A DNA stretch of 64,000 nt, from contig OZ076419.1 in the NCBI GenBank assembly GCA_964187785.1, forward strand, positions 44,640,001 through 44,704,000, given 5' to 3'. Below are positions 1 to 37,494 of the stretch, piece after piece. A model generated the notes under the pieces. That model did no database searches and had not been told where the DNA came from. It was given only the letters and a program-made list of their open reading frames with translations. How positions within the stretch are numbered: position 1 is the first letter of the stretch; every line of letters begins with the position of its first letter. Origin of the DNA: Amphiscolops sp. MND2022 (Eukaryota). The position numbers and the translations under genes are program-made.

Positions 1-50
1 TACAAATCAGTCAACTATTAGGCTGTTCAGGATTAGGTTAACCCATAATG

Positions 51-2653: not shown

Positions 2654-2702
2654 GACAACTAAAAAGGATCATTGTTAGCGTTACCTTTTCAAAAATGATC
2701 AT

Positions 2703-10340: not shown

Positions 10341-10548
10341 TGTAAAAGATGTTTGAATATATACACAAGGATTGAATTTCGCGTTGAGTCAAGCAGAGTT
10401 TGGAAATTCAGAAAATCTGATTTGAAAACGAGCAACAATTGAAAATGAGCAGCAAGCAAACTAACAAGAGGTTGGTAATTAGGATTGTTTATAAGTAAGT
10501 TGAGATGGCTAATTTGGTTCAAGTGAAAAAATGGGAATTGAATAATTA

Positions 10549-10625
10549 GGACTCAGAACAATAACAGACTCAAATCAAGCTGAAAAGTTTTCACCTTGAT
10601 TTGAGTCTGTTATTATTCGGAGTCC
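10549..10625. promoter_or_regulatory. Long hairpin-forming inverted repeat in the head-to-head intergenic region (candidate bidirectional promoter); also ~33602-33678
   Basis: 31-bp arms GGACTCAGAACAATAACAGACTCAAATCAAG and its complement, 2 mismatches; a third partial copy at ~10660-10697. The promoter role is inference. Confidence 0.45.
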
Positions 10626-10872
10626 GAATGAATACTAGTAAGTTGCTAATACTTATTAGGACTCAAAATGTTAGCAGTCTCAAATCAAGCTGAAAATGAG
10701 AATTTGTTCCCAAGTTCAATAGATTATTTGTTCTCACCGATGCAACATTGGCGAAAGTGTTAAGCCTCAAATCGAGTAATAAAATTTTCGCCACTAATGA
10801 AGCATTCAAAGAACCTATAAAAAATCAAATATACAATCTATTCCAGTTGTCAACAAGTTTTCAAGTTGAATA

Positions 10873-13800: not shown

Positions 13801-14442
13801 CTGAATAAGCCCAATGGTCGCGTGAATCTTGTCTGCATACCCATTAGTACGGGTGTGGTCATGAAAGGTGACACCGTGTCACTAATGGGAACTGATTGGA
13901 AAGTGAACGATCTGTATTTCTTGGAGAATAAATTATTTCTGGAAGTCGAGAAACGAGACGATGCATTTTTTAAATCCACAGTCCCAATCAATTATATTAA
14001 AAAAGAATGTGTTTCCCCGGTCGAATTTCACCCAGCAATGCCCCTTTATGAGGAACACTCATTGATTTATTGGGCCTACTCAAACTTACGGCATATATTG
14101 ATGCATTCCTTCAACGGTGCGAGCAGAGTAAAGGACATCAGAAGAGATATTGCCCCATGTACTCCTGCGACACTGCACGCATTTGGCATTCGAGACGGCA
14201 CGGTGACGTATAGTGTGAAATACGATGGCGCCTTATCCACTGCAAGTTGGGATACCATACTGGGGGACGAATGGGACAAGGTTGCGGAAGGGACAGCTGT
14301 TGTGATGTCCATAAAGTTCAAAGAAGATAGAAGCTGTACCCTCAACTTTAATAGGAATATATTTGTGCAAGCTACTCTCGTATCCAATGTAAACTTCAAA
14401 ACAATGGAGAATTACAGAATGCATGTCAAGGAGCATTGTTAA
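10873..14442 (+). CDS. Orphan protein of unknown function (~442 aa; exons 10873-10980 and 13222-14442), copy 1
   Basis: 404-codon open frame preceded by acceptor ttgtcctttacag. Upstream ATG exon MQFSKVFQCGKPLQC...THK ends in AAG|GTAAGT, phase 0. Intermediate exons cannot be excluded. Confidence 0.6.
12769..12847 (+). other. tRNA-derived (Asp-like) Pol III pseudogene or SINE head; also 35821-35899
   Basis: A box TGGCATAAATGG, loop CTGTCGA, T-arm CTGGG-TTCAATT-CCCGG, T-run terminator. Acceptor and anticodon stems pair poorly. Confidence 0.6.
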
Positions 14443-14605
14443 CTGGTACATAATTTATGTTTGACAATTTTTCAATTCAATTTGTGTTCCGATTTTTTTC
14501 TTTCATGATCAAAGATTCTAAATTTGTTAAACTTACAGTAAGATATGTTCAGGAACCGTCCTATTGGACAGCGTGCTGTCGATCGTCACTGCAACTGTAG
14601 AGCTA

Positions 14606-16112
14606 CCCTAGTCGAGCCTGCACGAACTTTTTGCATGTTGCATGAATGCATGCAGGGAAACTTTTTAAAAAACCTAGAAAATTCAAGGATCATGCAGGGA
14701 AAAATCTTGTAAAACTTTCCTGCATCTTTGAAAAATGATCAATTTTCAGATGAAAACTTTTAGAAAAAGACACTGCAGCCTATGAATTTTTGAGCAAGAG
14801 TTCACTTGAAAACGATGACTTCGCTCGAAATCCTCTTCTGATAGAAAACAAAAAAAATAGAAAAATACACTAAATTTGATAAGTGAAATTCAAAACAACA
14901 AATTATAAAAATTATAAAAAAAATTACAGCCTCAGTCTTACTTATAGTAGCTGAGGTTTTCGGGAACCATCTGACATCAAGAAACGGGACATCAAACTCG
15001 TAAAGAATCTGCAATAGTTGCAAGCAAGCTTCCACGACAGAAACGATTCCAGCGATATTGAGGCCGGCGTGAAAATATCGTCATTGAACAATTGTTGGGA
15101 TCTACGTTCACTTTCTAAGAACTTTGAGTGTTTTTCGTTCCGAACGAGTCTCTGATTTTCTGCGAACCTTCAAATCATTCTTTCCTTTGATATGACAGCC
15201 ACGAATGCTGCTTCTACATTGAATGGTTGTAAGTCCGATTTTATATATTTATATGATTCATCTTTTGAAAGCTAAATGACAGCAAGAGGACAAAAGCATG
15301 ATCGTTCTGGGCTAATTTGTTGCTCAGCTATGGGACTATGTATGGAAGTTATCACATCTGTTCCTTTATTCATTTGAATGCTCCAAGCTATTATCGTTCG
15401 TTGCAACTCGGGCTTGATGCTGCGACGACAACAATCTCTTGGCCTTTTCGACTTCTCGTCTCAATATTTCAAAATGATAAATGTTATTAGAAATTTTGAA
15501 AAAAAATTTCACGTCGAATGAAGAAAGTTTTGATTTTTTTGTTCCTTCTGAGAACTTTTTACTGAGAATAGCGTCAGTTCTTTTTTTTCCTTTCGATTCT
15601 CGATTTTAATAGGTAATAGGAAAGTCAAACTATGAAGTTTTAAACAGTCCAATGAAAATCGCTCATTTTCGACATTACGCTCTAAAGTAGTTCCATCAAG
15701 TTTTTCTCAGGATACCATGAAAACTTATAACTTTCTGCCCTAATGACTTGAAGTCGTGACAAATTTTCTATGACCTTATGTTTTTCAGGCGAAAAAAAAA
15801 TGAACCGCGCTGACGATTTTGAGACGAATTTCTTTGCTTCAGTGGCACATTTAGATGAGTTCACATCAGACGAAAGTTTTGCGGGTTTTCGTCCTCTACA
15901 ACTTTGATCATCATGATGCTGCTTACAAAACCCGCCAAATTGTGCATAAACCTTGATTAAAACTAATAAGCTGATAATTAACTTAAATAATTATCAGCTC
16001 AACGGCGAAATTTTCGAGCATGAAAATAATTCAAAGAATCACCCAAAACTTTATTAAAAGTATCAGGCAACCTATAAAAGCATGTAAAAAGTTCATGCAC
16101 TGTGAACAAGGG
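14606..16112. mobile_element. Non-autonomous TIR element with CCC..GGG ends and TA flanks; also 17560-19066 and 37658-39163
   Basis: TA|CCCTAGTCGAGCCTGCACGAACTTTTTGCATG ... CATGTAAAAAGTTCATGCACTGTGAACAAGGG|TA; imperfect ~30-bp TIRs. Confidence 0.65.
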
Positions 16113-16496
16113 TACCAACAGGGGTGTGCATGCAATAATCTATCGGAAGATCAATAAATTATTGCAAAAAATAATTTATTAGAAAGCTTTTCACTATGAA
16201 TAATTTATTGGCAGGAAATAATTAATAAAATAATTTATTGCATCATGCAATAAATGAAACAATAAATGGGACATTGAATACACCTCGGTTCACATGTATT
16301 TGTTATGTAATATATACCATAAGATTAATATATACCGAAAGATTATGCCCACAGCCAAGTATATTTAGTGCCCACAGCGAAAATCAATGTCGCCCTATCA
16401 TCTAGAATGTGTTCTGTCTTTGAAGACCAATAAATAGTATTGGCATGCATCAATATGTGTTCAATTATGATGATTCAATATTTATAAATTATTGTA

Positions 16497-17396
16497 ATTG
16501 TGGAAGGCAAATTTCTCGACGAGCAGCTTAAAGGAATTGATGTCACCACGATCTCATACTTCCAGCTTCGACCTGAACATTGTGAAACGTCCAGGAGAGG
16601 AAAGCACAAGAGAGCAACAGAGCAGCCGGAGGGAGAACGAGATGAAAGCGAGGACGAAGATGATCGATTCAACATTAGAATTCAGGTCCCATCGAAGAAG
16701 ACAAAAGTTGTCAAGCAAAAGCTTGCTCTTATTGGCGGACCATCTGACCCATTTCTGAATAAGCCCAATGGTCGCGTGAATCTTGTCTGCATACCCATTA
16801 GTACGGGTGTGGTCATGAAAGGTGACACCGTGTCACTAATGGGAACTGATTGGAAAGTGAACGATCTGTATTTCTTGGAGAATAAATTATTTCTGGAAGT
16901 CGAGAAACGAGACGATGCATTTTTTAAATCCACAGTCCCAATCAATTATATTAAAAAAGAATGTGTTTCCCCGGTCGAATTTCACCCAGCAATGCCCCTT
17001 TATGAGGAACACTCATTGATTTATTGGGCCTACTCAAACTTACGGCATATATTGATGCATTCCTTCAACGGTGCGAGCAGAGTAAAGGACATCAGAAGAG
17101 ATATTGCCCCATGTACTCCTGCGACACTGCACGCATTTGGCATTCGAGACGGCACGGTGACGTATAGTGTGAAATACGATGGCGCCTTATCCACTGCAAG
17201 TTGGGATACCATACTGGGGGACGAATGGGACAAGGTTGCGGAAGGGACAGCTGTTGTGATGTCCATAAAGTTCAAAGAAGATAGAAGCTGTACCCTCAAC
17301 TTTAATAGGAATATATTTGTGCAAGCTACTCTCGTATCCAATGTAAACTTCAAAACAATGGAGAATTACAGAATGCATGTCAAGGAGCATTGTTAA
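16497..17396 (+). pseudogene. 5'-truncated duplicate of the orphan exon
   Basis: Created by the 2,954-bp tandem duplication; starts mid-exon with no acceptor or ATG. Confidence 0.75.
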
Positions 17397-19072
17397 CTGG
17401 TACATAATTTATGTTTGACAATTTTTCAATTCAATTTGTGTTCCGATTTTTTTCTTTCATGATCAAAGATTCTAAATTTGTTAAACTTACAGTAAGATAT
17501 GTTCAGGAACCGTCCTATTGGACAGCGTGCTGTCGATCGTCACTGCAACTGTAGAGCTACCCTAGTCGAGCCTGCACGAACTTTTTGCATGTTGCATGAA
17601 TGCATGCAGGGAAACTTTTTAAAAAACCTAGAAAATTCAAGGATCATGCAGGGAAAAATCTTGTAAAACTTTCCTGCATCTTTGAAAAATGATCAATTTT
17701 CAGATGAAAACTTTTAGAAAAAGACACTGCAGCCTATGAATTTTTGAGCAAGAGTTCACTTGAAAACGATGACTTCGCTCGAAATCCTCTTCTGATAGAA
17801 AACAAAAAAAATAGAAAAATACACTAAATTTGATAAGTGAAATTCAAAACAACAAATTATAAAAATTATAAAAAAAATTACAGCCTCAGTCTTACTTATA
17901 GTAGCTGAGGTTTTCGGGAACCATCTGACATCAAGAAACGGGACATCAAACTCGTAAAGAATCTGCAATAGTTGCAAGCAAGCTTCCACGACAGAAACGA
18001 TTCCAGCGATATTGAGGCCGGCGTGAAAATATCGTCATTGAACAATTGTTGGGATCTACGTTCACTTTCTAAGAACTTTGAGTGTTTTTCGTTCCGAACG
18101 AGTCTCTGATTTTCTGCGAACCTTCAAATCATTCTTTCCTTTGATATGACAGCCACGAATGCTGCTTCTACATTGAATGGTTGTAAGTCCGATTTTATAT
18201 ATTTATATGATTCATCTTTTGAAAGCTAAATGACAGCAAGAGGACAAAAGCATGATCGTTCTGGGCTAATTTGTTGCTCAGCTATGGGACTATGTATGGA
18301 AGTTATCACATCTGTTCCTTTATTCATTTGAATGCTCCAAGCTATTATCGTTCGTTGCAACTCGGGCTTGATGCTGCGACGACAACAATCTCTTGGCCTT
18401 TTCGACTTCTCGTCTCAATATTTCAAAATGATAAATGTTATTAGAAATTTTGAAAAAAAATTTCACGTCGAATGAAGAAAGTTTTGATTTTTTTGTTCCT
18501 TCTGAGAACTTTTTACTGAGAATAGCGTCAGTTCTTTTTTTTCCTTTCGATTCTCGATTTTAATAGGTAATAGGAAAGTCAAACTATGAAGTTTTAAACA
18601 GTCCAATGAAAATCGCTCATTTTCGACATTACGCTCTAAAGTAGTTCCATCAAGTTTTTCTCAGGATACCATGAAAACTTATAACTTTCTGCCCTAATGA
18701 CTTGAAGTCGTGACAAATTTTCTATGACCTTATGTTTTTCAGGCGAAAAAAAAATGAACCGCGCTGACGATTTTGAGACGAATTTCTTTGCTTCAGTGGC
18801 ACATTTAGATGAGTTCACATCAGACAAAAGTTTTGCGGGTTTTCGTCCTCTACAACTTTGATCATCATGATGCTGCTTACAAAACCCGCCAAATTGTGCA
18901 TAAACCTTGATTAAAACTAATAAGCTGATAATTAACTTAAATAATTATCAGCTCAACGGCGAAATTTTCGAGCATGAAAATAATTCAAAGAATCACCCAA
19001 AACTTTATTAAAAGTATCAGGCAACCTATAAAAGCATGTAAAAAGTTCATGCACTGTGAACAAGGGTACCAA

Positions 19073-19592
19073 CAGGGGTGTGCATGCAATAATCTATCGG
19101 AAGATCAATAAATTATTGCAAAAAATAATTTATTAGAAAGCTTTTCACTATGAATAATTTATTGGCAGGAAATAATTAATAAAATAATTTATTGCATCAT
19201 GCAATAAATGAAACAATAAATGGGACATTGAATACACCTCGGTTCACATGTATTTGTTATGTAATATATACCATAAGATTAATATATACCGAAAGATTAT
19301 GCCCACAGCCAAGTATATTTAGTGCCCACAGCGAAAATCAATGTCGCCCTATCATCTAGAATGTGTTCTGTCTTTGAAGACCAATAAATAGTATTGGCAT
19401 GCATCAATATGTGTTCAATTATGATGATTCAATATTTATAAATTATTGTAACATTACAATAATTTATTGTTTAAAACAAGTCTTATTATAATTTATTGTT
19501 TAAAACAAACAATCATTTATTGGTTAGTTTCAGCAATAAATTGACTTATTGTATCGTATCAATAATTATAAATGCAATATTGCGCACCCCTG
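19073..19592. mobile_element. hAT-like MITE (CAGGGGTG TIRs); also 39170-39689 and a truncated copy at 16119-16497
   Basis: CAGGGGTGTGCA...TGCGCACCCCTG; 8-bp flanks GGTACCAA / GTTACCAA (7/8); internal AATAATTTATT repeats. Confidence 0.7.
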
Positions 19593-19804
19593 GTTACCAA
19601 ATAGCCGGCTTGGCTAATTTGATTTGAATGATATAATACGGGTGAAAGTTGGCAATTAATTAAGAATGAAAATTGAATTGAATAGGAAATTGGCAGTAAT
19701 GAATTATGAGAAATCTCAATTGGCAAACGAAGAAATTGAAATTTTGTAAATCCGTTTACGAACCTTGTCGGGACTGAACGAAATTTTCACCGAATGTCAG
19801 GACT

Positions 19805-20134
19805 GCTGTGACGTCATAATTAAAATGATAACAAGAGACCAAATAACACAGCAACTGTGACGAATGTGCACGCTTGATTTCTTAGTTTGATTTCCATTTT
19901 ACGGCCTGTAATGAGCTGTGACGTCATAGTTAAAATGATAACATAAGACCAAATAACACAGCAACTGTGACGAATGTGCATGCTTGATTTCTTAGTTTGA
20001 TTTCCATTTTACGGCCTGTAATGAGCTGTGACGTCATAGTTAAAATGGTAACATAAGACCAAATAACACAGCAACTGTGACGAATGTGCACGCTTGATTT
20101 CTTAGTTTGACTTCCATTTTACGGCCTGTAATGA
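19805..20134. repeat. 3 x 110-bp tandem repeat, each unit with TGACGTCA; also ~39902-40231
   Basis: Units start at 19805, 19915 and 20025. Confidence 0.92.
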
Positions 20135-20899
20135 GCTCGATACAGTATGGATACTATTTGCAGGCATAGAGCGGACATGAAGATTACGAAACTCTATCTC
20201 CAGCTCATCACAGTTTGTAAAATGACAGATTATCTTACCTTCAGCCCATGACAGTCCGTAAACTGAAAGATAAAAAAATTTCATTAATAAACGCTAAACT
20301 AAAAAAATGCACGATAAAATGAAAGCTCTTATCTCTAGCTCATCACAGTCCGTAAACTGAAAGGGAACATGTCATCTATTTCCCCCCAGGTACACCTTGT
20401 TAGGAGTTCTCCCCAACACGAAAGCACATTTTCTTCTGGAATAAAAATACTTCACCAAGAAGAGAGTATTATATAAAAGTAAATACTTAGAGGATTGTCT
20501 CTACTAATGTTTGGACACTTCAGGTTTAAAAATGCCATTATTGTTTGTTGATATTGTGCAAAATAGTAAAATTCCCGCTTGAACAAGATACAAAATTATA
20601 AAAAGGCCCCTATTTCACGCAAATTTTCTCCGTGACAAATCTAATGAGCCGTGCCTAATGATTATGTCGACAACAAGGGATCAGAAAAATCTATGGGAGT
20701 TCACGCATCAAACATTGAAAATTCAGACTCAAAAATTGAAGATTATCCTCTTAGACCTTCAGAAATGAAAGATTTAGCACATCGTGATAAGCCTCTGTAC
20801 GGAAATGAAATAGACTTAGACGCAACTATAGTATCAAATGATCACTCTGAGTCATGTATTTTAGGTCTAATGGTATACAATTAAGCTCATGGTATCAAT

Positions 20900-21257
20900 C
20901 AACTCTAGTGTAACTTTAGTGTAACTCAATCCACTTAAACAGCGTGAAACAGTGTAAAACAATCAAACTATAGTGTAAATCAATCAAGTTAAGCAGCGTA
21001 AAACAATCAAAGTTGTTACTGAGTGAATTCAAATTTAAAGCGTCAGCAAGAAATTGTCTAGTATTAATGAATTAGTGTAAAGTAGTCAAACTTTGACTAC
21101 TATCCACTTTTTGAGGAGATTACTTTCTGAATTCCTCAAAAAGTGAATTCTAGTTAAAGTTTGACTGATTTACACTTGACACAATTTCTTGACTGGAATA
21201 CACTTTTTACGAATTACACTTAATGACTGAAATTCGTGAATCTGCGTTACACTGCTT
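20900..21257. repeat. Subterminal short-repeat field (AGTGTAA/TTACACT, AGTCAA/TTGACT, small hairpins); also ~40997-41354
   Basis: Motif orientation flips across the field; 12-bp IR ACTTTTTGAGGA..TCCTCAAAAAGT at ~21106-21144. Confidence 0.65.
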
Positions 21258-21390
21258 GACTGAAATACGCAATAAAATAGCTGATACACGTTACACTCCT
21301 TGACTAAAATACGGTTGGAGACTATTTTACACTGAAAACATACTACACTTGATGATAAAAATTCACTTTTGCGGCTCATGTATCGTAATG
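21258..21390 (-). repeat. Right terminal inverted repeat; also 41355-41487
   Basis: Both unit copies end exactly at this motif. Confidence 0.8.
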
Positions 21391-21591: not shown

Positions 21592-22228
21592 CTTTATTTT
21601 TGCCGACAATTATATTGCTATACAATAATTAACACCTTTGTCGAATGTGTAAGGAATGTAATGGGAGGATAAACTCCAAGCATGTGGAAGGGAAAATTTC
21701 GAATAAAATTTATCAATACAACGATGAGAAAAAGAGGAAAAACTAAGTTCTTTTATTGCATAGTCTTCACAAATTGACCATATAGTGCACGGAGAGTTTT
21801 AAAAAATAGTCATTTTGCCTCCTATCACGAGTGGATGTCCTGTTTCTCGCCTTGGTGGGCGCATAGAGTTCCACAGATCAGTTGGCAAAAGTGAACTAAT
21901 GTGACGATTCGGGTGAGGGGCGCTTTGTGGTGTCACCTGAAAAAGTTCATACGGAGTATTTTTTGAATCTGCATTACACTGCTTGACTGAAATACGCAAG
22001 AGAAAAGCTAATACACTTACACTCCTTGACTAAAATATAGTTCGGGGTTATTCTATTGTTTTATCAAAGTATTTTGAATGGTATTTTTGTTTTTTGATTT
22101 TCAAAATTCTTACAAAAGACGGAAAAAACAGGACACAAATGCCAACACGGGTTGAAAAATCATTGAGAGTCTTTGCAAATGAAACAATTCTATTTGGCGG
22201 GGTTACCTGCAAGCTTTCGATCGTCGAT

Positions 22229-25200
22229 TTAATGATTCTGCGACCACGCTGGCAACGGATGACTTAACAGGGAGGCCAAATACCGATTTCTGTCATTGGG
22301 TTTGAATGCTGAAAAAACAATACGGCATGTTCATGCATGATACAACATAAATAGCTCGTCAATTGAACTATGTGTCACTAAGTGTCAGTCACAGAGAACT
22401 AAGTGTATCACAAACTTAATAAGCCCTCACTCAAACTAAGTTTCATTAGGCGGATTCCGACTTACTCGTTTCTCGTGGAATCTTGGCAATTTTTGCCTTC
22501 GAATATTTGGGGCCGAGAATTGGCTTCATCGTCTCCAAGAAGGTGGGATGTACTAGACATATCACATCAACGGTGTCAATGAGGGTGTCGCGATAGGGAA
22601 TATCATCCACGTTCTCGTGCGTTTTCGCTGTGAGGGTCTCTAGCTTATCATCGTCAATTGCGCTTTGGGGAATCAGCTCGCCTGCTTCATTTTTCCTTGT
22701 CCATGGTTTCGGGGTGAATGCCACGAGAAAAAGTTCGCTGATATACCCCAAACAAGGCACACGGGGATCATTGGAAAATGTGCGCCGGGTACAAATCATC
22801 TCATCCAGCTTAGCCCTCGTGAACGCAGGATAGAACTAGAGTAAACGTAAACTATTATATTTTTTTAAAAAATCTTCGAAAATAAGTTATGAGTTTCAAA
22901 TTACCAGATGCTCATCACAGTTCGTAAATTTTGCTTAACGTTCAACGTAAAAATCCTGAAAAATTCAAATGCGTAAAATTTTGTAGAAATCATACGTAAA
23001 ACTCCTAACAATTTCAAAATTGTAAAAAAGTATTCCAGTCAAGAAATTGGGCCATGTACAAATCAGTCAACTATTAGGCTGTTCAGGATTAGGTTAACCC
23101 ATAATGTCATGCTGTCTTCAATACCTGTTTCGCTTCCTCTTCGCGGTAACGAAGGTCAATGCATCTGTGCACTCGCATTAGAGCCTGAGTGACAATGCAA
23201 CGCTCTGCTGCTTTAAGGAGAAGAATTGCCAACATTTCCATGAGGTTTTGAAATTTAAAACGGTCTGGCAAGGCATCCTCCTCTGCAATTGCCTTGCAAA
23301 TTTCGTCAGAATGGCCCTCTGCTAGGAAGTTGGTACCAATGGCAACTGTATCCGATCGCGTCAAGACAAAATGCAGAAATTGTGCAGGCATTGCAAAAAT
23401 GTCTCCTGGTCGCAAAGTGACTCTCAGACATCCTCCTTCGAGGTGACGATGGCATGCAAAGAACGAGTGGCTAAACGAAAAACCTCGATTTCAACAAGTC
23501 ATTGTAAATATTAATAACGTGGTGCGTTTCAAGCTTCTATATAGATAAAATTTGTTTGTTTTGTGCATTACAGTGCATTGACAAACTTAATTTTTACAGA
23601 CACATGTTTGTGCGTGTAACCACTTACAACTGAAATAACTGAAACACTAGAATAAAGTATTCATTGAAAGTGAAATGGGAGGTTCTAAATACATCTGCTT
23701 ATTCAAAAAATTGACGTGTACACATGCAGGGGGCTTCAAGGGTAAGTTATTTTGTCTTCGATTTTTTGTGTTTTCTGTGTAAAAAAATTTTTGACCGTTT
23801 TTGTCGTACGTCATAGAGAAACAACTGAACATCATTAACATTAGAACTTTTTAGTTTAAAAATCATTAATTTGTTCGATTTTTTGTGAGAAAAGGAAAAA
23901 AAACAACTCACGTTTCATCGGTTTGTTGTTGGAACCAGTCGTCAAAAAGTTTCAGGTTCTTCTCTGTGGGGGCGATCAGAAAGAAAATTTTTTCGCCTGT
24001 CAAGACGGTATATAGAACCGAGGTGGCACTAAAATCTTGGTGCCAAAAAGTTTGGCATCCATCCTGTGATAGCAACAGATAATAGCTGGTCCCACTGGCA
24101 AAAGGTTCTGTTCGTGACATGTTAATACTTGCATCAAGAAAATGGGCCATTGAAGTTCGTTTGACCATGTCCGGAACCTTGTACAGTTTCTGGAAAAATA
24201 AAATGAGGTTCCTCAAGATGAAAAAGTAACATTAGTGGTACTTCTAAATGTGTAATTTGATGTATTGTTTCTTTTGTTTACCTTCGGTTTCATTTGAATA
24301 TCGATAACATTGAGGGGGTAGTATTCACTCAAACGATCGTCCTTCAGAAGATCTGACTTCACCTCTGTATAATTCAGGTTTCGTGTCTAAAATAAATACA
24401 CGTGGAATTTATACGAACTGTAAAAAGCAACCTGAAAAAATATGTGAATTCAAATCTTTCTTCAGGTTGCTCTTCACAGTTCGCAAAACACTTACCATAT
24501 AAACTAGTAGATTTTGCAAAGTGTTTAGTAAGTGTTTTGCGAACTGTGAAGAGCAACTTGAAGAAAGATTACGATACTTTAGCCGCATCGAACTAGCAAG
24601 ATCTTGTTAGATCAATAATTAGCAATTAACAACGCGTTATTTATTCAAATACTCATTACTTTTCGATACTCATGAGAAAAATTCTAAATTTGATACAAAA
24701 GATTTGCCAGTCACATTTGGTGAAATATTACTTACCTGGCCAATCTTTGCTGATTTGACGTTGATTTCAAGATCCTTGTCCAGCAGATTTTCCTCTGTTA
24801 AAAGCATTTCGACAAATTGCTTGAACTCAGATGAATCTGTGTTGGATTGGTGCTGTGGGTTTGATAGACGAGGCAGTTTGAGTCCGTCACAGTGATTGGT
24901 TCCATCGCGCCAAACAATTGGGACACTGTGTCTAATGAGGGCATTGAATTTGGTAACATGGTTGCTGACATTTCCATGCCACATGGCAACAGGGAAGTTG
25001 CTCTCCAATTGTACGTTGGTGCAAAAGTCGAAAAATGCGGTTGTTCCAAAAACATCAGGGGGCATGTCTGTGTATTGGGTTGACAAACAATACGAATCGG
25101 CTGATGGAGAAAGACGTGAGGAGGAACTCGGCGAATCAAAAGCAGTGTCCACTTTACTCTTGCATTGAGCGTGCTTTAGAAGATGTGTCTTCAAATCATA

Positions 25201-25709
25201 GGAAAACACATAGCTTTTCCCGCAGCCATGGCAGATGTTGGGACTTCGTTTTACGCCTCTCGCTGCCTCTGTAACATGGAAAGTTTTTAATCAAAATATA
25301 GTACAGTTTTTCGACGTGGAATTTGATATTATAGAGATGACACAAATAACTTATTTTGAAGATAGTTATTGTCTTTTATTTCAGTTTTTTGCAGTATAGT
25401 TTTGTATTTCATGGTTCATGGAGATGATATATAGAGGTACTCACTATAGTTGTACATTGTGATAGGAATTCCAGCACGTTTGCGAGCAGACTGTCGTTGG
25501 CAGTATGCTGTCGCCCAGTGACTTTTCAACAGTTTCTTGCCCATTAATAATTGCCCACACCGTGGGCACGTTCGTTCCTGCAATTTCCACTCTTCAAGTG
25601 GCATGCGGTGGCATGCACTTGACTGGTGACGTTTTATATTTGAGCTTTTATTGGATTTGTAGTCACATCGGCCTTGACCACATGCAATCATTTCTTGTCT
25701 GCAGCTCAT
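22229..25709 (-). CDS. Zinc-finger + JmjC protein, copy 2 (~630-650 aa)
   Basis: Exons 25709-25445, 25268-24736, 24362-24282, 24189-23912, 23470-23125, then 22835 onward (acceptor ctctag, phase 0). Either stops at 22446 or uses the GTAAGT donor after 22466 to reach exon 22308-22229. Confidence 0.75.
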
Positions 25710-26195
25710 GACAACTAAAAAGGATCATTGTTAGCGTTACCTTTTCAAAAATGATCATGATAAGGTCATAGGGACCTCTTCGTCAAAATTATGTGGTCAC
25801 ATGGACCTTGTAAAAAATATGCGGTCATAGGGACCGTGGCAAAATTATGTGGTCATAGGGACCTCTTGTAAAAATTATGTGGTCATAGGGACCGTGGCAA
25901 AAATAATGTGGTCATAGGGACCTCTTCGTCAAAATTATGCGGTCATAGGGACCTTGTCGTCAAATTATGTGGTCATAGGGACCTTGGCAAAGTCATGTGG
26001 TCATAGGGAGCTCTTCGGCAAAACTACGTGGTCATAAGGACCTTGTCGTCAAATTATGTGGTCATGGGGACCGTGGCAAAAATAATGTGGTCATAGGGAC
26101 CTCTTCGGCAAAACTACGTGGTCATAAGGACCTTGTCAACAAATTAGGCAGTATACAAAAATAGTTCAGTGATGGTCATTGCGACCTTGTCAAAT

Positions 26196-29100
26196 TTATG
26201 TGGTCATAGGGACCTTGTTACAATGATATACAAAAGAGTTTCGTTTTCTATTTTCCTGATTTCCCTCTTCTTCGTTAATCCTCGTCTTCATTGTCTGTCT
26301 CTTAACCGCATTCTTGTATTTCCGCATGGCTGTGTGATATGTGATCAAATTAGCAGAGGCAATAGTTGGATGTGATGATTGGCGCTGTAACTGGGGGGCA
26401 ACTGATTGGTATCGTATCTTCCTGAAGCTGGACTTGGCGGACATATCTACTTGGATGATATACTCTTTTGGATCCACTAGTGACTTTTTTTCTGAACATT
26501 TGAAGATAAATTCTGCGTTGATGTAGATCCAATTTCCAAGTGTTGTATGATAGAACGCCTTGGTCGATGATGTATCTTTGATCACTTGGTTGCAGGTGAA
26601 GGAATCAATGGATCGACGATTAGGTAATACACAGTAATGATGGCTCAAAAAACTCAGCTTACTTCTGTTGACAATGTCGGTATTATTGAGAACAGTGCCA
26701 CCATTTTCTGTGATTGTTTTTTCGATACTGGCCTGAGTTTGCCTTATGTTACCATATGTCCCGAGAACAATAAAAGTCATACATCTAAAAATTTCGGCGG
26801 TTCTATGGAAGTCAAGAACGGGCTCTATGATAGGTTCGCGGCAAATTTCGAGATACGATTTAACATCATCTTCATTTGAAAGTCGATATCGACGAAGTAA
26901 ATCGGCCTTTGAGGAGCAGAAGTCAACAGCACGCAGGAAGGAGAACTGAATGTCGAGGAAATTTGAGGACATGTTCCATGCGTCATTTCCTCCATCTCTC
27001 ATAGTCTTTGAGTTATAATCCTTGCTGGCAGTATGGTGACTTTTTTCAGTGCCTTCTGTCATGTAATGAAATGGGGACAAGATCTCACCTTTTTCGTAAA
27101 TTCTGAGCAGCATATCGATTTTCAGTTTGTATGGTGTTAGACCGCGATCTCCAAACAAACACAATGTGCACTGATAATATGTTTCATAAAGGTTTTTGCA
27201 CTTCTGGAGGTCAGTGATCTCTCGTTGCCGAAGCAATTCAAGTAGTTGAAATAAAGATTGAAATTGGAGATCAGCTAACTTTCTGACTGAGATTCCAATA
27301 CCTTTTGTGAACTGTGTTTCCAATCCGCCAACTAGTGATATGAGAACATTGTAGGGCGTGTTTGGTTGTGTTTGGTCTGATTTATATACATGTGGAGTTT
27401 GAAAAGAAAAAACTCCTTCGAAGAGTGGATTATCAACCCGCCCAAAGTCTCTGGTCCTTGTACAGTCAGAAATAATGACCTCCGCATCTCGAAAGCTCAA
27501 AGACACAGCTTTACAGAGCTTGTCGACTATTCCGAATTTGAATCTTGGGGGCTTGACATTCCGTTCTGTTATATTACACTCAAGTCTTCCTATTGCTGTG
27601 TGATCTTTTGATGATACCAGTGAATCAACGTGTAGTTTGAGATCATTTTCAACTGAGCGAACAATCATATGAAGGACATCTGGACATGTATTAAACGTGG
27701 ACTTCAGGAAAAGAAGAGACTCGCTGGGAAGTTGCTCGGAGATATCGAATTTCAATTCTGTTCGTCGGCCGGTGGCACAATCTATTGTAGATGGGAGAAT
27801 CACACCCTTCGATTCAAGGTCTTTCGTATAGGTACTGTCTTTTTTCGCCTTCTGTCTGGAACCTGTAGTGTTGGAAACAGCTATTGGATCAGGCAAATAA
27901 AGGCACATTTTGGAGTGACATGATGCATCACTGCTGACTCCCTTCAACATTCGTAACTGGAACGGCGAATCGCCCGAACAACTCAGAATAGCCCCCTCAT
28001 CATGCAGGGCTTTTGTCTCGTTGTACAACCATCCGTGTCTACCAAGCGTCTCTGACATAGTGAGGTTGTATTCCAAATTGATTCGCACATCCTTGCCCTA
28101 TTCAAAATACATTGCATAAGCATGGGTAAGAACATACAAACATAATAAAATTTAATACAGTAACAAAATTTAAAAATTACTCAAGAAGGTTCGTAAAACA
28201 TTTCCTTTGTATTAGAAGATTGCTCAAGACAGTTTGTAAAACATTTTATTTGTGATAGAAGATTGCATAGAAGATTGCTCAAGACAGTTCGTAAAAAATT
28301 TTCTTTGTTTTAGACGAGTGCTCAAAACAGTTCGCAAAGAATGATCTTTTATTTAAAGACTGCTCAAGACAGTTCGTGAAAACACAATCCTTCTATAAAA
28401 GAATACTCCAACTATTTCGTGAAAACGTAACTTACATCAAACACTGCGAATGTGAAGACATGTGTTGAAGACTGTTCAGATTCTATTCCACTATCTAGGA
28501 TACGGAACGCCATTCTAACGACATCGCGGTTTCCTCGAGACATTGCATCTCCGTATATATCAACTCTCCTGAAAGGGTGGTCTTTTTATAGAGATTGCAC
28601 GCAACAAACTTTACGAATTTGACAAGATTGACTCGGAAACCAGTTGGGGTTCGCGATGGATTGAGTATTGATCGGAAATCTTTATGCAATCTCGAGTTGA
28701 CAGTCTCCAGTTCAAGTCTCGATGGGAGGATTGATGCTTTCATAAATGGACATTTAGTGAGCTGACGTAGTTTGACTATAAGATCTTTGGGGTTGCTCAA
28801 ACTAAGAAGACATTGGATGGAAATTTGGATGTCTTCTCTGTCATTGCCAAATAAATTAGGTAGTAACAAATGTAAAAGCATGTTAACAATAGGATTTTTT
28901 CGTTTTGACACTGTTTTCTGGTTAACCAAAAATTCATTCAAGGTCGTGCTGAATTTTTCAAGAACTTCTGCGGAATCTGAAAGCAGCTTGAAGCAATTGG
29001 TCCAAAACTCTCCAGTATTCTCGAAAGTGTCCGGACCTAATACATGTTTCAGTTGTCGATACGATACATTTGTAATATTGTTGGGTAACAACTTTGGATC

Positions 29101-29908
29101 AAGAATTGACGAAGCATGTTGGAGTGAGTGATTTGTAGTCGTATCATTAGTTTGGAAGGTGGGTGAACTCAATGTATTTGTTGCAGAAGGTTTGAAACTG
29201 ATCTGGTTCATCGGTCGGGTAACGTGAAGCTGGGGTGACTCCCTAATTGATGAGGTATCAATTGTCGAAAAAGAGGTACAATTTTGATTTGAAGGTATAG
29301 GAAAAGAAGGATAAAACTGTCGTAAAAAGGTTTCTCTTTCAGTCGTCCAAGGTAACAGCGATGGAGGGGCTGATATCATTAACATGTCAAAAATGTCTTC
29401 TCGTAAAAGTGCACATCTTTCTATTTTAACACCATGGGGTTTGTACTCGTCCTCAATGTTTACACTTGTACCTGTAACAAAATACACAACGTCAATGATA
29501 AAATTCAATATATTCAAAAGCAAATAGCCAAAACAAAAAGCTTAGAAACCATGGATCATCAATATCAATATACTGAAGATGTCTAATGATTCATTACGAT
29601 ACATGAGCCGCAAAAGTGAATTTTTATCATCAAGTGTAGTATGTTTTCAGTGTAAAATAGTCTCCAACCGTATTTTAGTCAAGGAGTGTAACGTGTATCA
29701 GCTATTTTATTGCGTATTTCAGTCGATGTAAGTTACCTGCATATTGTTTGATAAGAAATGTTCTGATTTTTCGTCGATCATTTGCGTTCAAACATCCATT
29801 CTTTTCCAGTGGGAAAATCGCCGGGAATAGATCGTTCAAGAACAAAAGCTTCACGTACTTCGTGTCGTCAGAAACGACCATAGGTTTTTGGAGTTGACTT
29901 GGTGACAT
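26196..29908 (-). pseudogene. Transposase-BRCT gene, copy 2, frameshifted
   Basis: 4-bp deletion at 28568/28569 (copy 1 ctctcacacctga versus ctctcctga) shifts the frame just before the first putative catalytic Asp. Confidence 0.8.
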
Positions 29909-30402
29909 TTCAAACTAAAACAAAAGGGGAATGTCAGCTAAATTAAAGGGAGATAACTGATGTCATTTTCGAAGTTTTCTTTTTTCTTTATGATTCGAAG
30001 TTTTCGTTTTCGAAGTATTCATTTTATGATAAGATGATGTATACATAAAACATAATTCATAGTAATATAGATAGTATAATCATATTATATAACATAGAAA
30101 TATATATAAAATCATAGTTCTAAGAGTTTGAAAAGTTTGCAGACTTTGGTGGTTGAGAGGGTTACAGAGGTTGAAGGCAGAAGGGTAATGTTCAAATAAT
30201 AAATCGGCCAAAATAAAAGAAAGGTCACTGACATAATAAGAAGAAGGACCTGGTGTCGGTTTCGAAATGAATATATGATGGTGTGTACATAAAACATGAT
30301 TCATAGTAATATAGATAGTATATATCATAGTAAATATCATAGAAATATACATAATATCATAGTTCAATGAGTTTTAAGAAAAGTTTGCAGAGGTAAGAAG
30401 CA

Positions 30403-33393
30403 TTACGATACAGAAGTTGAAGGCTGGGAGGTTGTTACAGAGGCAGGCACAGAGGCCGAATTTTGGGTTGTCACAGAGGTTGTGGGCTGGGAGGTTGTTA
30501 CAGAGACAGGCAGAGAGGTCGAAGGTTGGGAGGGTCCCACAGAGGGTGCAGGTCTATGAAGGAGTGGCTGTTGAAATTCTGTTCGACATTTTGGATCGTT
30601 ATAATCAAAGCAAAGTTCCTCGAGTGCATCGATTCGCCGTTTAGCAATGAAAAGAATGACATCTTTTCCGTTAAGAACCAATCTCCGTGCTCTCACGTTA
30701 CACTGGGCATGATTGGATGGTCTATAATTAAGTAGACGCCCAAAGGTTCTTCGTCCGGGATGGCAATCACATGTTTCTAAGGTGGCATCAAAAACTATGT
30801 CCCCACAGTCCAGAATGTACTGTGTGTTCTCGCGTCTAGAGAGGACTCTCTGGGATATGATAACATCAGTGTGATAATCACATAAGATTTCTGATTCGTT
30901 GACCTTAGTCGTTGTGATAACTCCTCTTCCAAAAGTGCCGTTGGTGAAAGCGATCCGCTCTTGGACTTGAAGGAAGGGCCAATCTTGGTCAGCAAGGAAT
31001 TGAGAAACCTTTGAAATGTTACAAACTGTTAAAGTGGATTTACAGAAAAACATGCCCATGCCTCTGTGTGGAAGTGCTTCACTGGGGTCTTCTACGGGTG
31101 TGTTACGCGTTGACCTTCTGGTTTCACTGGTTGATGCAGGCTTCCAAGAGGCTGAGACTTTGTCAACAATTCGTGCAACATCGTGCCACCCGCGGTTGCG
31201 TGTAAACTTTGCAATGTCGTCTTTAGATGGCTGGGTTGAACCAGTAAAAAAGTTCAATGCTTTCTCTACACGGAGATTGACGAGTTTGTACCTCATATGG
31301 TCGTTAATCTTTTCACCAAGTGTTTTGGCTGATTTCGCATCCATTTTTGTGTTTCGAATGATTGTTTTACTGCATTCTACGGGTGTCAGAACGACGGAAT
31401 CTACACTGGTTGGCATTTCGAAGAACTTCTTAACCTGAAATTGTGTAAAATGAGCAACTAAAAAAGAAATTGCTATCTACGGGTCACAAAAATTATGGTA
31501 AAGTTGCCAAATTTGCCAACCAGTGCCCTTGACATCGTAAAAATTGCTCTCGACAGGTCGAAAAAAGCCCTATATTAATCCTTTTGACATATCGTAGAAA
31601 TATTACTTACAGCATTGATGGTGGGAGATATGTTCCCTGTATTTGAATAGAAGATTTGCCTCTTTGAGTTCGGTGACATTTGCATCATATCGTTGTGAGA
31701 TAAACGTTTTCTTTTCGAGTGTTGAGGTTCGACATTTTCGTCGTTTTCTGGTGAAATTGCATTGGCGGGGGAAATGAGGACTTCTTCAGTGGCGAGCAAC
31801 GGTCGGGAGGAGATCGAAGCACCTAGTTTATCAATGGGAGCATTAGTTGATCGTCTTTTGGGTTTTGTGTGCGCGGCAGACATTTTAGTGTTGAAATTTT
31901 CACAGACTCGTGCGACATTGATCTGCTTGTTTCCATTCGAATTGTAAAAGAAAAGTTGGGTCATTTCTTGGACATTGGGGTCTGATATAACGGTGACTGG
32001 GAAACTTTCTTTTGTAAGCAATTTGAAACTATTGGTCCACTTTGGTCGGATATGTTTGAAATAAAAAAGAAGTACTTTATATTCAAACTTATTAAATTTC
32101 AGAGCAGTCCGATACTTGTACTTGTTGCCATCGGAGACACTGACGTATTTGAAACTGTTACCGTGGTCGACCATGTTCACGAAATCATATACAGTGAACC
32201 GCTTCAAAAGTCGGGATGGGTAGCTATTGATGTAACACCACATTATTACGATACACTGGAAGATTAGGAGGCAGTCTTCTTTATGAGGTGTTGTCTCAAA
32301 ATTGGTCACAAAATCAATATGGGAGCGACTGTCTGACCATTTCTGCATCATCGCTTCCCGCTCGTTGTCATGTGGAGTACCCATGTCAACATGTGGCGGA
32401 AAAAGTTGCGTGGGTTGAGGAAAGAACGGACTGACTTCTATTGGGACTGGGTGATTGCCGGGGTTACAGTTACTCGTAACAGGTCCCTGTCTTGATGGAG
32501 GGAAAAGCATAGTTCTGAAAGGTGGTTCTGATGGTATGGCGCGGTTCACATGATTGTTCTGGTTTGTTCGTACCGGGGTGGAGGCTACAGACGGTTGAAA
32601 CAATACAATTTGTTCCCCATTTACATCAGGAGGTGGGGTCTGTGCTGGTGCTGTACTTTGGCTTTGCAGGGTGGGTTGAGAATATTGAGTCACGAAATGT
32701 CCTTAAAAAAATCAATCGTCAATTTTGTACCGAAAATGATGATTCTCCTCACATGGTCAGACTTCATTACGATACATGAGTCGCAAAAGTGAATTTTTAT
32801 CATCAAGTGTAATATGTTTTCATTGTGAAATAGTTCGTTTCACCAAAAGTTTCACCAAAATATTTCACCAAAAAGTTCCTTTGTTTTCATAAAAATTTGC
32901 CAAGAAAGGTGTGAACTTCTTTCAAAAAAGTTAGGATGAAAATACAACATGGGTGTTTAGAAAAACATTCACCTGATTGTTGAGAAGCTCTTTGGGGGTA
33001 TGACTGCTGGTGATGGTGATCAGCAGCGGAGGATACTGAACTCGAAGAGGCAAATTCATATGGATCGAACGCAGACAGAACATGATATGTTTGGCAATTT
33101 CTAGCATGTTGCATATGATTCGTCGAAGAGGAGACATCATGATCATCATGATTATCATGATCGTCATGATGTTGCTGATGCGCCTTCAGTTGTTGATTTA
33201 TAATATTTTGGAGTTGAATGTGATTCGAATTAGACGAAGAATCAGAGGTTGACATTGTGAAAGACATATCATTGGTGGGAGCAGAATTAGATGACGCAAA
33301 TGCAGAGTTCGTCATTTGAAAGGTTGATGGTGGCAAAGTTTGCTGGGGGTGAGTGAGTTGTTGAAGGTGATGATTTGGAGCAGTGTTTGACAA
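30403..33393 (-). CDS. YR-like/SET gene, copy 2 (frames open)
   Basis: Same exons and splice sites; a few missense differences. Confidence 0.72.
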
Positions 33394-33925
33394 TGTAAAA
33401 GATGTTTGAATATATACACAAGGATTGAATTTCGCGTTGAGTCAAGCAGAGTTTGGAAATTCAGAAAATCTGATTTGAAAACGAGCAACAATTGAAAATG
33501 AGCAGCAAGCAAACTAACAAGAGGTTGGTAATTAGGATTGTTTATAAGTAAGTTGAGATGGCTAATTTGGTTCAAGTGAAAAAATGGGAATTGAATAATT
33601 AGGACTCAGAACAATAACAGACTCAAATCAAGCTGAAAAGTTTTCACCTTGATTTGAGTCTGTTATTATTCGGAGTCCGAATGAATACTAGTAAGTTGCT
33701 AATACTTATTAGGACTCAAAATGTTAGCAGTCTCAAATCAAGCTGAAAATGAGAATTTGTTCCCAAGTTCAATAGATTATTTGTTCTCACCGATGCAACA
33801 TTGGCGAAAGTGTTAAGCCTCAAATCGAGTAATAAAATTTTCGCCACTAATGAAGCATTCAAAGAACCTATAAAAAATCAAATATACAATCTATTCCAGT
33901 TGTCAACAAGTTTTCAAGTTGAATA

Positions 33926-36900
33926 ATGCAATTTTCCAAAGTTTTTCAATGCGGAAAACCATTACAATGCTTTGAGGAAGAATGTGGTCTTTGGCGATCT
34001 GCGTTTGTAAAAGAGTTCACCGGTACACATAAGGTAAGTTAATTTCTTTACAAACACTGTAAAAACTTGTAAATAGTTTTACAAACTGCCTTGAGCAATT
34101 TTAATAGCCGTGAATATAAAAATGTCTCAAGACAGTTTGTAAAAAGAGCATTCTTTGTTTACGTTTTTGACAGTGATACTTTGAAAAACTGGTCAGAACA
34201 GTTCGTGAAAAACATACAAAAGAATATAGAATAAGATTGTATAGTATAGGAATACAAAAGAAGAGAAATATATGAAAGAAAATAGTATAAAATTTTGTAT
34301 TATACTCTTTTATAAATTCCTAATCTTTTGTTCTTAACTTAGATAAACTCGTTTAAAAATTCACTTTTGCGGCTCATGTATCGTAATGAAATATAATGAG
34401 TAATAGAATTAGGGGGATTCCCAAATGGCCTTTCCTCAATGTTGCTACTCGTCGGAAGGGAGCGAAGCGCCCAAGTCATACAACAAATATAAGAATCTCT
34501 TCAGATAAAGACCTGAAAATAAACGCTGAAATGGAGTTTTTCGACGCGATGAATAGGTAACTTTGATTTCGACTCAATGAATAGCCTCCGTAGAATTATA
34601 AACTATCTGCCTATTTTTTTTGTATATCCTCAAAAATATCTAAAATATTAGGAATGTTGTATATACTTCAATTACTCAGTTCAATATGTATCAAAGTAAA
34701 ACTTCAGCTTTGGCTTTGCGACTGCTAGATGTTTTACGTTCGTAGAATTTCCGCACAGCAGAAAATGAAAGTTCGATCCCATACAGCAGAATATTTGTTT
34801 ATGCTGCTCGGATTGGCTGGAAATTGAAAATGAATTGAAATCAGTTAGTTGAAAACGCGTGACGGATTGTGTAGGAATTACATATAACGTTTTATTAGCC
34901 TAATATTAGCTACTCTATTACAGTCTACTCTAATCTGTATACTCAGTTAATGAGTATCTGTATTAGCTGAGCTGTAACAGCACTAAAAGCTAGTAATTCT
35001 TTTGACTGACAGTCATTGTATTGGATTGAATTATGTCGACCATAATTTTACGGGACCAAATTGGGACCAACGCAAACGATGTCGACACAATGATATTCGA
35101 ACCTTGTGACTTAATTGGGGGGAAGGGGGCGAAATGCACACATCGTCCATTTATTTCCCTGAACTCTATATGGGAATAAAGAATTTTCATTTTCGGTATG
35201 AAAATAAAATATTTTATGATCATTCTTTCAAGAAATTGTTTAAAATCTTTTTTGTTAAATAAAGCCCCCCCCCCACAATATGCCTTGAAATTTTAGATCC
35301 CTACAACTATCATCACGATACAGGAGCCGCAAAAGTGAATTTTTATCATCAAATAAACAGGAGAAAGTCATCATTTTTTTGAGTGCCTGCTGGAATTTCA
35401 TTATTTTTAGGGGTTTCCAGTTTTTTTTGAAAATTGGTAACATGCGTGTTCAATAAATGATTATGGGTAAACACTTCTACTCATTCTATTATTGTATTTT
35501 ATTTATTATTCATTGAATCTTTTATTTCAACAAAAAATAAATTATTTGAACACTCAAATGAATAAACCAATTATATTTGGACCAGTTAGAATAAAAAACA
35601 ATTATTCTTGAGATAACTAAAACTAAGAACGTTTAATTTAACTTATCGTCAGCGCATTAAATTCCCACTCAATTTATATTATTCCAATCAACGCAATTTG
35701 TTGAGCGATGCAAAATGACTAATTTTGCACTGCTGAACAAAGTGTGTTGATTGAATACTTGTAACCAATAGGATTTCAGTACTTTATAATATAAAGTTCT
35801 GAAATCGTATTGGTAACAAAGATCAGTGGCATAAATGGTAGAACACGAGGCTGTCGAGCTCTAAGACTGGGTTCAATTCCCGGTGATGAACATTTTTTTC
35901 AAGGGTCATGTATCACAACGTGCCCTAAAATATTTTGAAAAATAAATTTCAGGCTGGGAAAAATAATGAATTGTAAGTTTTTCCCCATAAACAATTGTTT
36001 TTATTCTCAGCTAAAAACGGATATCAGCAAAAACTTAAATTGTTGAACTAAGTTCTGAACATCGTAAATAGACCAATATTTGTTGTTAGCCATCAAACAA
36101 GTGGTATAAACTAAGTGATAGATCTTATAAATGTTTTTACCCACAAACATTGATTGAATACGCCTAGTTATTTGCATCTGATTTTCAATTTTTTGATAAA
36201 TTGAAATTGTTAACTAAGTACACGACAGCATTTACCAAAAAAAGATTGTTTAGTTTACATTTGTCCTTTACAGGCGAACGTGAAATGGTTTAATTATACG
36301 AGTAGGCACGCTGCTGGTACCATAGAATGTCCGCCCCAATTCTATGATTTTCCTGAAAAATGGCCGATCCGGAATAACGAGCCAATGATGTTAGGATACA
36401 GTAGAAAGACAGAGTTAGTGCTGAGCCTAGAAGTCCTAGGATACATGAAGGACAAGCGTGTAAGGAACGATAAGATTTTTTACACCCGATCATTAGACAA
36501 AGATGGACTGCTAACGGGAGATATCAAAGAGGGCTATGTGATGAAAAACGACCCTTTCCTTAAAAAAATGCTGGTATCCCCAATTATGGTACCCATTGTG
36601 GAAGGCAAATTTCTCGACGAGCAGCTTAAAGGAATTGATGTCACCACGATCTCATACTTCCAGCTTCGACCTGAACATTGTGAAACGTCCAGGAGAGGAA
36701 AGCACAAGAGAGCAACAGAGCAGCCGGAGGGAGAACGAGATGAAAGCGAGGACAAAGATGATCGATTCAACATTAGAATTCAGGTCCCATCGAAGAAGAC
36801 AAAAGTTGTCAAGCAAAAGCCTGCTCTTATTGGCGGACCATCTGACCCATTTCTGAATAAGCCCAATGGTCGCGTGAATCTTGTCTGCATACCCATTAGT

Positions 36901-37494
36901 ACGGGTGTGGTCATGAAAGGTGACACCGTGTCACTAATGGGAACTGATTGGAAAGTGAACGATCTGTATTTCTTGGAGAATAAATTATTTCTGGAAGTCG
37001 AGAAACGAGACGATGCATTTTTTTAATCCACAGTCCCAATCAATTATATTAAAAAAGAATGTGTTTCCCCGGTCGAATTTCACCCAGCAATGCCCCTTTA
37101 TGAGGAACACTCATTGATTTATTGGGCCTACTCAAACTTACGGCATATATTGATGCATTCCTTCAACGGTGCGAGCAGAGTAAAGGACATCAGAAGAGAT
37201 ATTGCCCCATGTACTCCTGCGACACTGCACGCATTTGGCATTCGAGACGGCACGGTGACGTATAGTGTGAAATACGATGGCGCCTTATCCACTGCAAGTT
37301 GGGATACCATACTGGGGGACGAATGGGACAAGGTTGCGGAAGGGACAGCTGTTGTGATGTCCATAAAGTTCAAAGAAGATAGAAGCTGTACCCTCAACTT
37401 TAATAGGAATATATTTGTGCAAGCTACTCTCGTATCCAATGTAAACTTCAAAACAATGGAGAATTACAGAATGCATGTCAAGGAGCATTGTTAA
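33926..37494 (+). pseudogene. Orphan gene, copy 2, with premature stop
   Basis: AAA>TAA at 37024-37026; the same frame resumes downstream. Confidence 0.7.

Follow-up and report, generated by a model that had tools for sequence, protein, structure and literature searches.

A transposon-borne zinc-finger and JmjC gene, a likely histone lysine demethylase, in six element families of Amphiscolops

Introduction

How do animal transposons counter chromatin silencing? The question is largely open, and the worked examples that we found come from plants (VANC), fungi (TET), oomycetes (SET) and the giant viruses of a protist. It is raised by a stretch of 64,000 nucleotides (the window; G000:C11:44640001-44704000) from the 1.07-Gb, intron-rich genome of Amphiscolops sp. 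MND2022, in which a large DNA transposon carries a gene with zinc fingers and a JmjC unit, here termed ZF-JmjC, on the minus strand at 25709-22229. On balance, we regard it as a transposon-borne gene kept by selection, whose product is likely to be a histone lysine demethylase that helps to keep the chromatin of the element permissive. Six related finger-JmjC enzymes with their own candidate motifs, together with a young family of about 170 copies, occur in this one genome and make sequence-specific anti-silencing directly testable. If true, such a protein would be a compact natural DNA-guided demethylase, of interest for epigenome editing.

Structure of the ZF-JmjC gene

Seven exons, joined from DNA signals alone, give a chain of 658 amino acids with zero internal stops in which three N-terminal zinc fingers are followed by a KDM2/KDM7-type JmjC unit. 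AG/GT signals were observed at all the exon joins, the introns being of the GT-AG type, and the intron positions and phases were found to be identical in families B, C and E (the families are described below). A preliminary description of this DNA had placed three fingers ahead of the JmjC domain, and all the motifs quoted there are present on the minus strand. It had also pointed to an uncertain junction, given as 1680/1306 in the coordinates of copy 1, the second copy of the element in the window. The donor at 1680 is right but the acceptor at 1306 is wrong; we kept the acceptor at 1330 (equal to 24386), which lies 24 nt upstream of 1306 in the same frame and is the acceptor retained in the other families. 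An extra mini-exon near 22905-22956 was considered and rejected; families B, C and E pass directly to exon 6.

Homologs that read across these joins were also observed. P0074, an unspliced homolog from another assembly, aligns continuously at 35% over residues 205-443, spanning exons 2-5, and P0001 reads through the exon 3/4 junction. In P0034, also from another assembly, a like finger is fused to a like JmjC unit within a single unspliced open reading frame (ORF). The search that yielded this protein gave 148 new matches, for the most part single exons, and only two of them, P0034 included, have a finger pattern.

The JmjC catalytic unit

All the residues that bind the cofactors (the Fe triad and 2-oxoglutarate) are present, namely T348, H351, D353, Y361 (the Y222 equivalent), K368 and H427; the H-x-D, distal H, T and K had been described as intact from the letters alone, and they are. 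Searches of exon 4 against the PDB gave 14 significant matches, all of them KDM2/KDM7 chains (KDM7A, KDM2A and PHF8; best E 7.8e-11), and exon 5 likewise matched KDM2/KDM7 structures (best E 4.5e-5). The N-lobe of exon 2 taken alone gave no meaningful match in the PDB sequence search and was left unscored by the canonical KDM2/7 profile. No PHD, CXXC, F-box or LRR domain was found among the Pfam matches of the six exon ORFs scanned.

The methyl-lysine in KDM2A is lined by I144, Y199, L201, D214, F215 and N298, according to a published study (PMC4197961). All six are matched in the element protein by I294, Y338, L340, D353, F354 and N441 respectively. The D353/Y361 pair is a pocket signature of the KDM2 type and therefore mono- and dimethyl-lysine marks are the expected substrates, as far as the residues can tell. 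Exon-4 copies outside the window were found to keep all eight residues scored in 20 of 25 cases.

The zinc fingers

Finger 1 (residues 10-33) has the form C-x4-C-x12-H-x4-C and finger 2 (residues 48-70) the form C-x2-C-x12-H-x5-C, with finger 3 located at residues 101-124. The linkers between them are 14 and 30 residues long. The fourth zinc ligand kept across the families was observed to be cysteine in all three fingers, and a second histidine in finger 3 is found in families A and C only. The array of C2H2 fingers proposed earlier is therefore not what the gene encodes; these are spaced fingers of the CCHC type. Pfam matches on single exons fell under the curated cut-offs, and 7 of 8 members still scored best-known as zf-C2H2. 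Asparagine occurs at position +3 of the finger 1 helix in 7 of 8 aligned copies and arginine at +6 in 8 of 8; both are DNA-contacting positions in classical fingers. A viral origin of the fingers is not claimed, the leads being weak ones from feature neighbours, with no match under E 0.09 in BFVD and none in PHROGs.

Families, copy number and selection

A search of the genome with exon 4 gave 1136 first-look candidates, of which 150 were scored, and the families were found by sampling these. The finger-JmjC cassette occurs in hundreds of copies belonging to six families (A-F) and two unrelated classes of element, with the fingers preceding the JmjC unit in all six. Families A, B, C and D carry a DDE transposase. 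Family B elements are 28-29 kb long and about 99% identical; each of 4 copies examined shows a target duplication of 2 bp, and a 26-mer of the JmjC exon gave 171 matches in this family. Families E and F carry a SUV4-20-like SET gene and a putative tyrosine recombinase, without a RAG-like transposase in the stretches examined; the cassette was found in all 4 of the family-E copies examined, out of 6, and in both of the family-F copies examined. The two families were compared with Crypton-type transposons, whose tyrosine recombinase has an R-H-R-Y catalytic set; the putative recombinase shows a resemblance to this motif, and Pfam and PHROGs gave no match. Of the genes found, only finger-JmjC is shared by the two classes, and it is paired in both with an H4K20-type SET gene, either SETD8-like (DDE families) or SUV4-20-like (E and F).

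Pairwise comparisons among A, B, C and E gave a proportion of synonymous differences (pS) of 0.67-0.96, which is saturated, and nonsynonymous divergence (dN) of 0.29-0.41 in the JmjC unit and 0.39-0.63 in the fingers. With saturation at synonymous sites but retention of the residues and introns, the alignments indicate that the cassette is under purifying selection.

Family E is an 11-kb element (G000:C5:44953250-44964435, with copies on C2, C7 and C8) inserted in (TAA)n microsatellites. Its copies are dispersed, with (TAA)n on both sides and without CATT termini.

Separation from the host gene

The host has a separate KDM7-like gene at C4:53.01-53.03 Mb, with one JHD match and one canonical JmjC exon at E <1e-12, and P0186 matches this gene exon by exon. 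Only this one KDM2/7-type match passed E 1e-12 among the 150 scored of 1023 candidates; no search with the CXXC domain was made for a host KDM2. In a tree of 51 rows, four element proteins were found on one side of a branch (support 100/99) where they group with divergent proteins, apart from 32 canonical KDM2/7 rows (100/99), with P0145, a row entered as canonical, falling in the divergent set. An approximately unbiased (AU) test on a 28-row subset that includes families D and F rejected a clade in which all six element proteins join the host-like one (p-AU 0.0008); in the tree of this subset the canonical set forms one side of a branch with a support of 100. With long branches and no root, the exact origin within KDM2/7 is only loosely placed. 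The check by JmjC phylogeny that had been proposed for this gene thus shows that it is not a copy of the host gene.

A phase-2 intron, located eight codons after the conserved tryptophan that follows the K motif, is shared by the element (23912) and the end of the host JmjC exon on C4. It hints, if weakly, that the element gene was captured from the KDM7 gene of an animal. In addition, P0029-P0093 form a divergent KDM2/7-like JmjC set with HQDF or HxDF-S/T motifs, which are possibly mobile cargo in other animals.

Repeated motif arrays

Each family was observed to have its own repeated non-coding motif, where A and C share one, B and F share GCTCACGAC, and D and E have motifs of their own. Repeats specific to the element, as suggested in the preliminary description, are therefore present, and one array lies directly 5' of the ZF-JmjC gene. 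Counts of the family-A unit GGTC-N5-GACC were 14 in A and, in two copies of C, 19 and 16; families B, D and E and the nine stretches used as controls gave 0-1. The family-A array has 48 paired-unit matches in the whole genome, spread over 13 places, and 10 of these places adjoin family-A JmjC matches. Fuzzy matching of each family's motif gave 15 units in A, 34 in C, 22 in B, 13 in F, 21 in D and 5 in E. A search for enriched 7-mers gave no motif common to A, B and C. The motif of family E also occurs at the element end, where the recombinase might bind. CpG is undepleted in the element and host DNA examined (observed/expected 0.8-1.0), which is weak evidence that fits silencing at the histone level.

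The units of A and C (GGTCA-TAG-GGACC and GGTCT-GAG-TGACC; A at 25764-26214, C at G000:C11:39319025-39330270) are each one mismatch from GGTCAnnnTGACC. This is the IR3 site of nuclear receptors, and a host factor could thus be the binder of the A/C arrays. A different satellite, with 99 copies of GGTC-N4-GACC, is located upstream of the window (L013-L015).

The host element and its transposase

The ZF-JmjC gene lies in a DNA transposon of 20-29 kb with CATTACGATAC ends and CA..TG termini. Family-A copies that are 96-97% identical were found on four further contigs that were examined. Every one of these copies stops at the same base, and one copy with both ends assembled has inverted repeats of CATTACGATACATG and an AG target duplication (2 bp). 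Among 12 loci examined, the 2 short derivatives with both ends in view also have 2-bp target duplications. There are 108 sites that match the family-A left end. Copies resembling the terminal inverted repeats were also noticed inside the element at 24567, 29592, 32765, 34388 and 35311, and two facing pairs could delimit sub-elements with SET or other cargo.

A model of transposase exon 2 matches BbRAGL (Z 9.9), HzTransib (Z 8.7) and RAG1 (Z 8.2) over residues ~134-351, a stretch of about 150-160 residues in a low-confidence model (mean predicted local distance difference test, pLDDT, 60), and its BRCT domain gave Z 10.4. The relative P0016 has a feature match to RAG1 clusters, and BRCT was the sole match in a Foldseek search with the transposase model. 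The CMCT clade (EnSpm, Mirage, Chapaev and Transib) is described as having CA..TG termini and target duplications of 2-5 bp (PMC12730594). The CA..TG ends, the 2-bp duplication and the predicted RAG1/Transib-like fold of the element appear to agree with that clade, but neither its C(2)C nor its H(3-4)H motif is conserved in an alignment of 11 transposase rows. The lineage is left unclassified for this reason, although the ends and duplication fit CMCT.

Proposed function and alternatives

The reading that we favour is that an ancestral KDM7-like gene was captured with its introns, its PHD reader was exchanged for CCHC fingers, and the cassette then spread between a RAG1/Transib-like DDE lineage and the putative tyrosine-recombinase elements. 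The element would in this way express its own lysine demethylase for lower methylation states, bring the enzyme to its own chromatin and offset repression. The reaction would be the removal of mono- or dimethyl-lysine, most plausibly of the repressive marks at H3K9 or H3K27, and the fingers would tether the enzyme to nucleic acid at copies of the element. The fingers possibly read the family-specific motif arrays, which is worth considering though the chances are against it. Slightly more doubtful is a fuller version, in which the cassette moved between unrelated classes always with an H4K20-type writer and the fingers recruit it to arrays amplified within each family, so that de-repression by a family would be confined to copies of that family.

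Several observations weigh against this reading. In the catalytic unit, the equivalent of S145 in the peptide groove was found to be aspartate in families A, B, C, D, E and F, and the GG that follows the HxDF motif in KDM2/7 is SA or SS in the element proteins. The mutation S145A abolishes the activity of KDM2A (PMC4197961), and because of these changes the groove appears altered and the enzyme may act elsewhere than at the canonical histone sites. Other family-A copies have H427Q, frameshifts or stops, and the copy that carries the ZF-JmjC gene at 25709-22229 has a frameshifted transposase; family A is decaying, and family B looks like the active one. The language-model neighbours of fingers 1-2 are zf-met/JAZ-type clusters of large DNA viruses (scores 0.94-0.96), and a model of these two fingers (pLDDT 82) gave no significant match to finger-DNA complexes, the best having E 0.5. 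Furthermore, the motif classes (A+C and B+F) agree only in part with the JmjC tree and the finger sequences. Arrays are common in transposons, and the protein that binds these could be the transposase or the product of another cargo gene. The proposal that finger 1 reads a GAC core in all families was rejected, as 8 of the 12 top words in a host control contained GAC or GTC and only 1-3 of 12 did so in D, E and F.

The pairing with an H4K20-type SET gene in both classes and the BRCT domain of the transposase raise an unlikely alternative, where H4K20 writer, JmjC eraser and BRCT transposase would together tune chromatin for transposition or for break repair at the sites of excision and insertion, and not for transcription. 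53BP1 reads H4K20 methylation and PHF8 can erase H4K20me1. However, the JmjC sequence gives no indication of H4K20 as a target, no BRCT partner was found in the examined stretches of the families that lack the DDE transposase, and the SETD8-like gene, with NY for NH, is perhaps weak or inactive. It is also quite unlikely that the protein is an active enzyme whose guide is RNA or protein and not a DNA motif, with fingers that bind ubiquitin, nascent transcripts or double-stranded RNA, or that it modifies something other than histones, for example a silencing protein of the host. The DNA-contact-type residues in the finger 1 helix, the zf-C2H2 scores in Pfam and the fully conserved methyl-lysine pocket argue against it, even though the zf-met/JAZ neighbours, the CCHC ligation, the long linkers and the altered groove would all agree with such guidance.

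Self-limitation, where the gene restrains the element (for example by erasing H3K36me2 as KDM2 does) and its copies become tolerable to the host, is very unlikely. KDM2A is structurally as close to the protein as KDM7, and SUV4-20-like heterochromatin writers would fit repression as well as activation; but the most expanded and youngest family, B, keeps the gene, and the published precedents are read as anti-silencing (PMC11244446, PMC12730594). The idea that the gene is a passively captured fragment of a host KDM2/7 gene or an artefact of the gene model, functionless for the element, is hardly credible. Many copies are indeed broken and the joins come from DNA signals, but this idea is already largely refuted by the purifying selection, the kept introns, the occurrence in six families, the split from the host in both the tree and the AU test, and the unspliced fusion in P0034.

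Relation to known systems

The closest enzymes are KDM7 (PHF8, KDM7A and PHF2) and KDM2A/B, which have in common with the element protein the H-x-D...H motif, the T, K and Y222 residues and the methyl-lysine pocket. The element protein differs in its N-terminal CCHC fingers, its long branch outside the canonical set, and its multi-copy, transposon-borne state. VANC of the Arabidopsis VANDAL (MuDR) elements acts with family-specific short motifs amplified as non-coding tandem repeats (PMC5735166). VANC is likewise an accessory gene on a DNA transposon with repeated non-coding motifs of the family, but it has DUF1985/DUF287 and causes loss of DNA methylation, whereas here the element has its own predicted histone-demethylase domain and an animal host. 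Fungal transposons carrying TET/JBP and the SET-carrying HarbingerS and MuDR elements of oomycetes belong to several unrelated lineages, including the RAG1-related CMCT (PMC12730594). They too carry a 2-oxoglutarate/Fe dioxygenase eraser or a SET writer on unrelated transposons; here a histone JmjC eraser is fused to fingers, and writer and eraser occur together in an animal.

The endogenized giant viruses of Amoebidium have KDM4-like JmjC genes proposed to counter host silencing (PMC11244446). These are also divergent, intron-bearing and mobile demethylase paralogs without the reader domains of the host, but they are viral, derived from KDM4 and JmjC only, whereas the gene described here is derived from KDM2/7, fused to fingers and carried on transposons. 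REF6/JMJ12 of Arabidopsis demethylates H3K27me3/2, has four fingers and is proven to recognise a CTCTGYTY site (PMC7105484, PMC6497721). The preliminary description had drawn an analogy with REF6; it is a loose one, in that zinc fingers and JmjC are paired in one chain, with no homology claimed beyond the folds. There is no closely linked C2H2 array, however, as REF6 is a single host gene with four fingers while the present gene is multi-copy with three spaced N-terminal CCHC fingers, and VANC and the TET-carrying transposons are closer. The transposase is similar to Transib/RAGL in its fold match to BbRAGL, HzTransib and RAG1 and in the CA..TG termini, and differs in the 2-bp duplication, the C-terminal BRCT, the unconserved C(2)C and H(3-4)H motifs and an element size of 20-29 kb with four cargo genes. 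We found no report of JmjC cargo, or of a finger-JmjC and SET cassette, on animal DNA transposons in the literature covered; Repbase Reports and most subscription journals were outside this scope, and a database entry may exist.

Other features of the window

The positions of the features are given in Table 1.

Table 1. Coordinates of the ZF-JmjC exons, the host element and its other genes in the window
Feature	Position	Strand	Remarks
ZF-JmjC exon 1	25709-25445	-	ATG; finger 1 (25682-25611), finger 2 (25568-25500); AF2 model with mean pLDDT 82
ZF-JmjC exon 2	25268-24736	-	finger 3 (25233-25162) in one open frame with the N-terminal lobe of the catalytic unit
ZF-JmjC exon 3	24386-24282	-	NVID motif; I294 = KDM2A I144, D295 replaces S145; identical boundaries in families B, C and E
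ZF-JmjC exon 4	24189-23912	-	JmjC core: Y338, L340, T348, H351, D353, F354, Y361, K368
ZF-JmjC exon 5	23470-23125	-	distal H427, N441, helical extension
ZF-JmjC exon 6	22835-22466	-	C-terminal region; 31-41% conserved in families B and C; no Pfam match
ZF-JmjC exon 7	22308-22229	-	holds the stop codon; families B and C have a counterpart
Tandem array, ~30 bp	25764..26214		candidate array for protein binding with 14 GGTC-N5-GACC units; lies 55 bp 5' of the ZF-JmjC start
Assembled part of family-A element	21592..41487		left end beyond the gap at 21392-21591
Second copy (copy 1)	1..21390		99.7% identical ~20-kb unit; assembly gaps on both sides; ZF-JmjC exons 1-5 open
Right terminal inverted repeat	41474..41487	-	CATTACGATACATG read inward
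Transposase exon 2	26196..28097	-	RAG1/Transib-like core and C-terminal BRCT
Transposase 5' exon	28495..29541	-	frameshift near 28570 ahead of the first catalytic-Asp motif; frame continuous in copy 1 and family B
SETD8/PR-Set7-like SET gene	30403..31476	-	Pfam SET E 2.7e-10; all 14 PDB matches are SETD8/KMT5A
Conserved cargo ORF, ~375 aa	31575..32702	-	no family match
Conserved cargo ORF	36214..37494	+	426 aa long in copy 1 but interrupted by a stop at these coordinates; no family match

Copy 1 may be a real tandem copy or a duplicated contig, and it has an internal tandem duplication of 2957 bp that spans the 426-aa ORF (window 13530-19451). The assemblies of family A were noticed to break at one and the same point, some 640 bp past the ZF-JmjC stop on its 3' side, with a gap or contig start in C11 twice and in C2, C7, C9 and C1620. 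In the SETD8-like gene (window 30577-31029), LLNYR is found in place of the INHS of SET enzymes, which changes NH to NY in families A and B. Two cargo ORFs are kept across the DDE families and gave no match in Pfam or PHROGs; both are candidates for the motif binder. Decayed fragments of a Pao/BEL-like element (DUF1759, protease and reverse transcriptase) and of a Gypsy-like integrase were also observed in the window, at 46346-54294 and 61571-62407.

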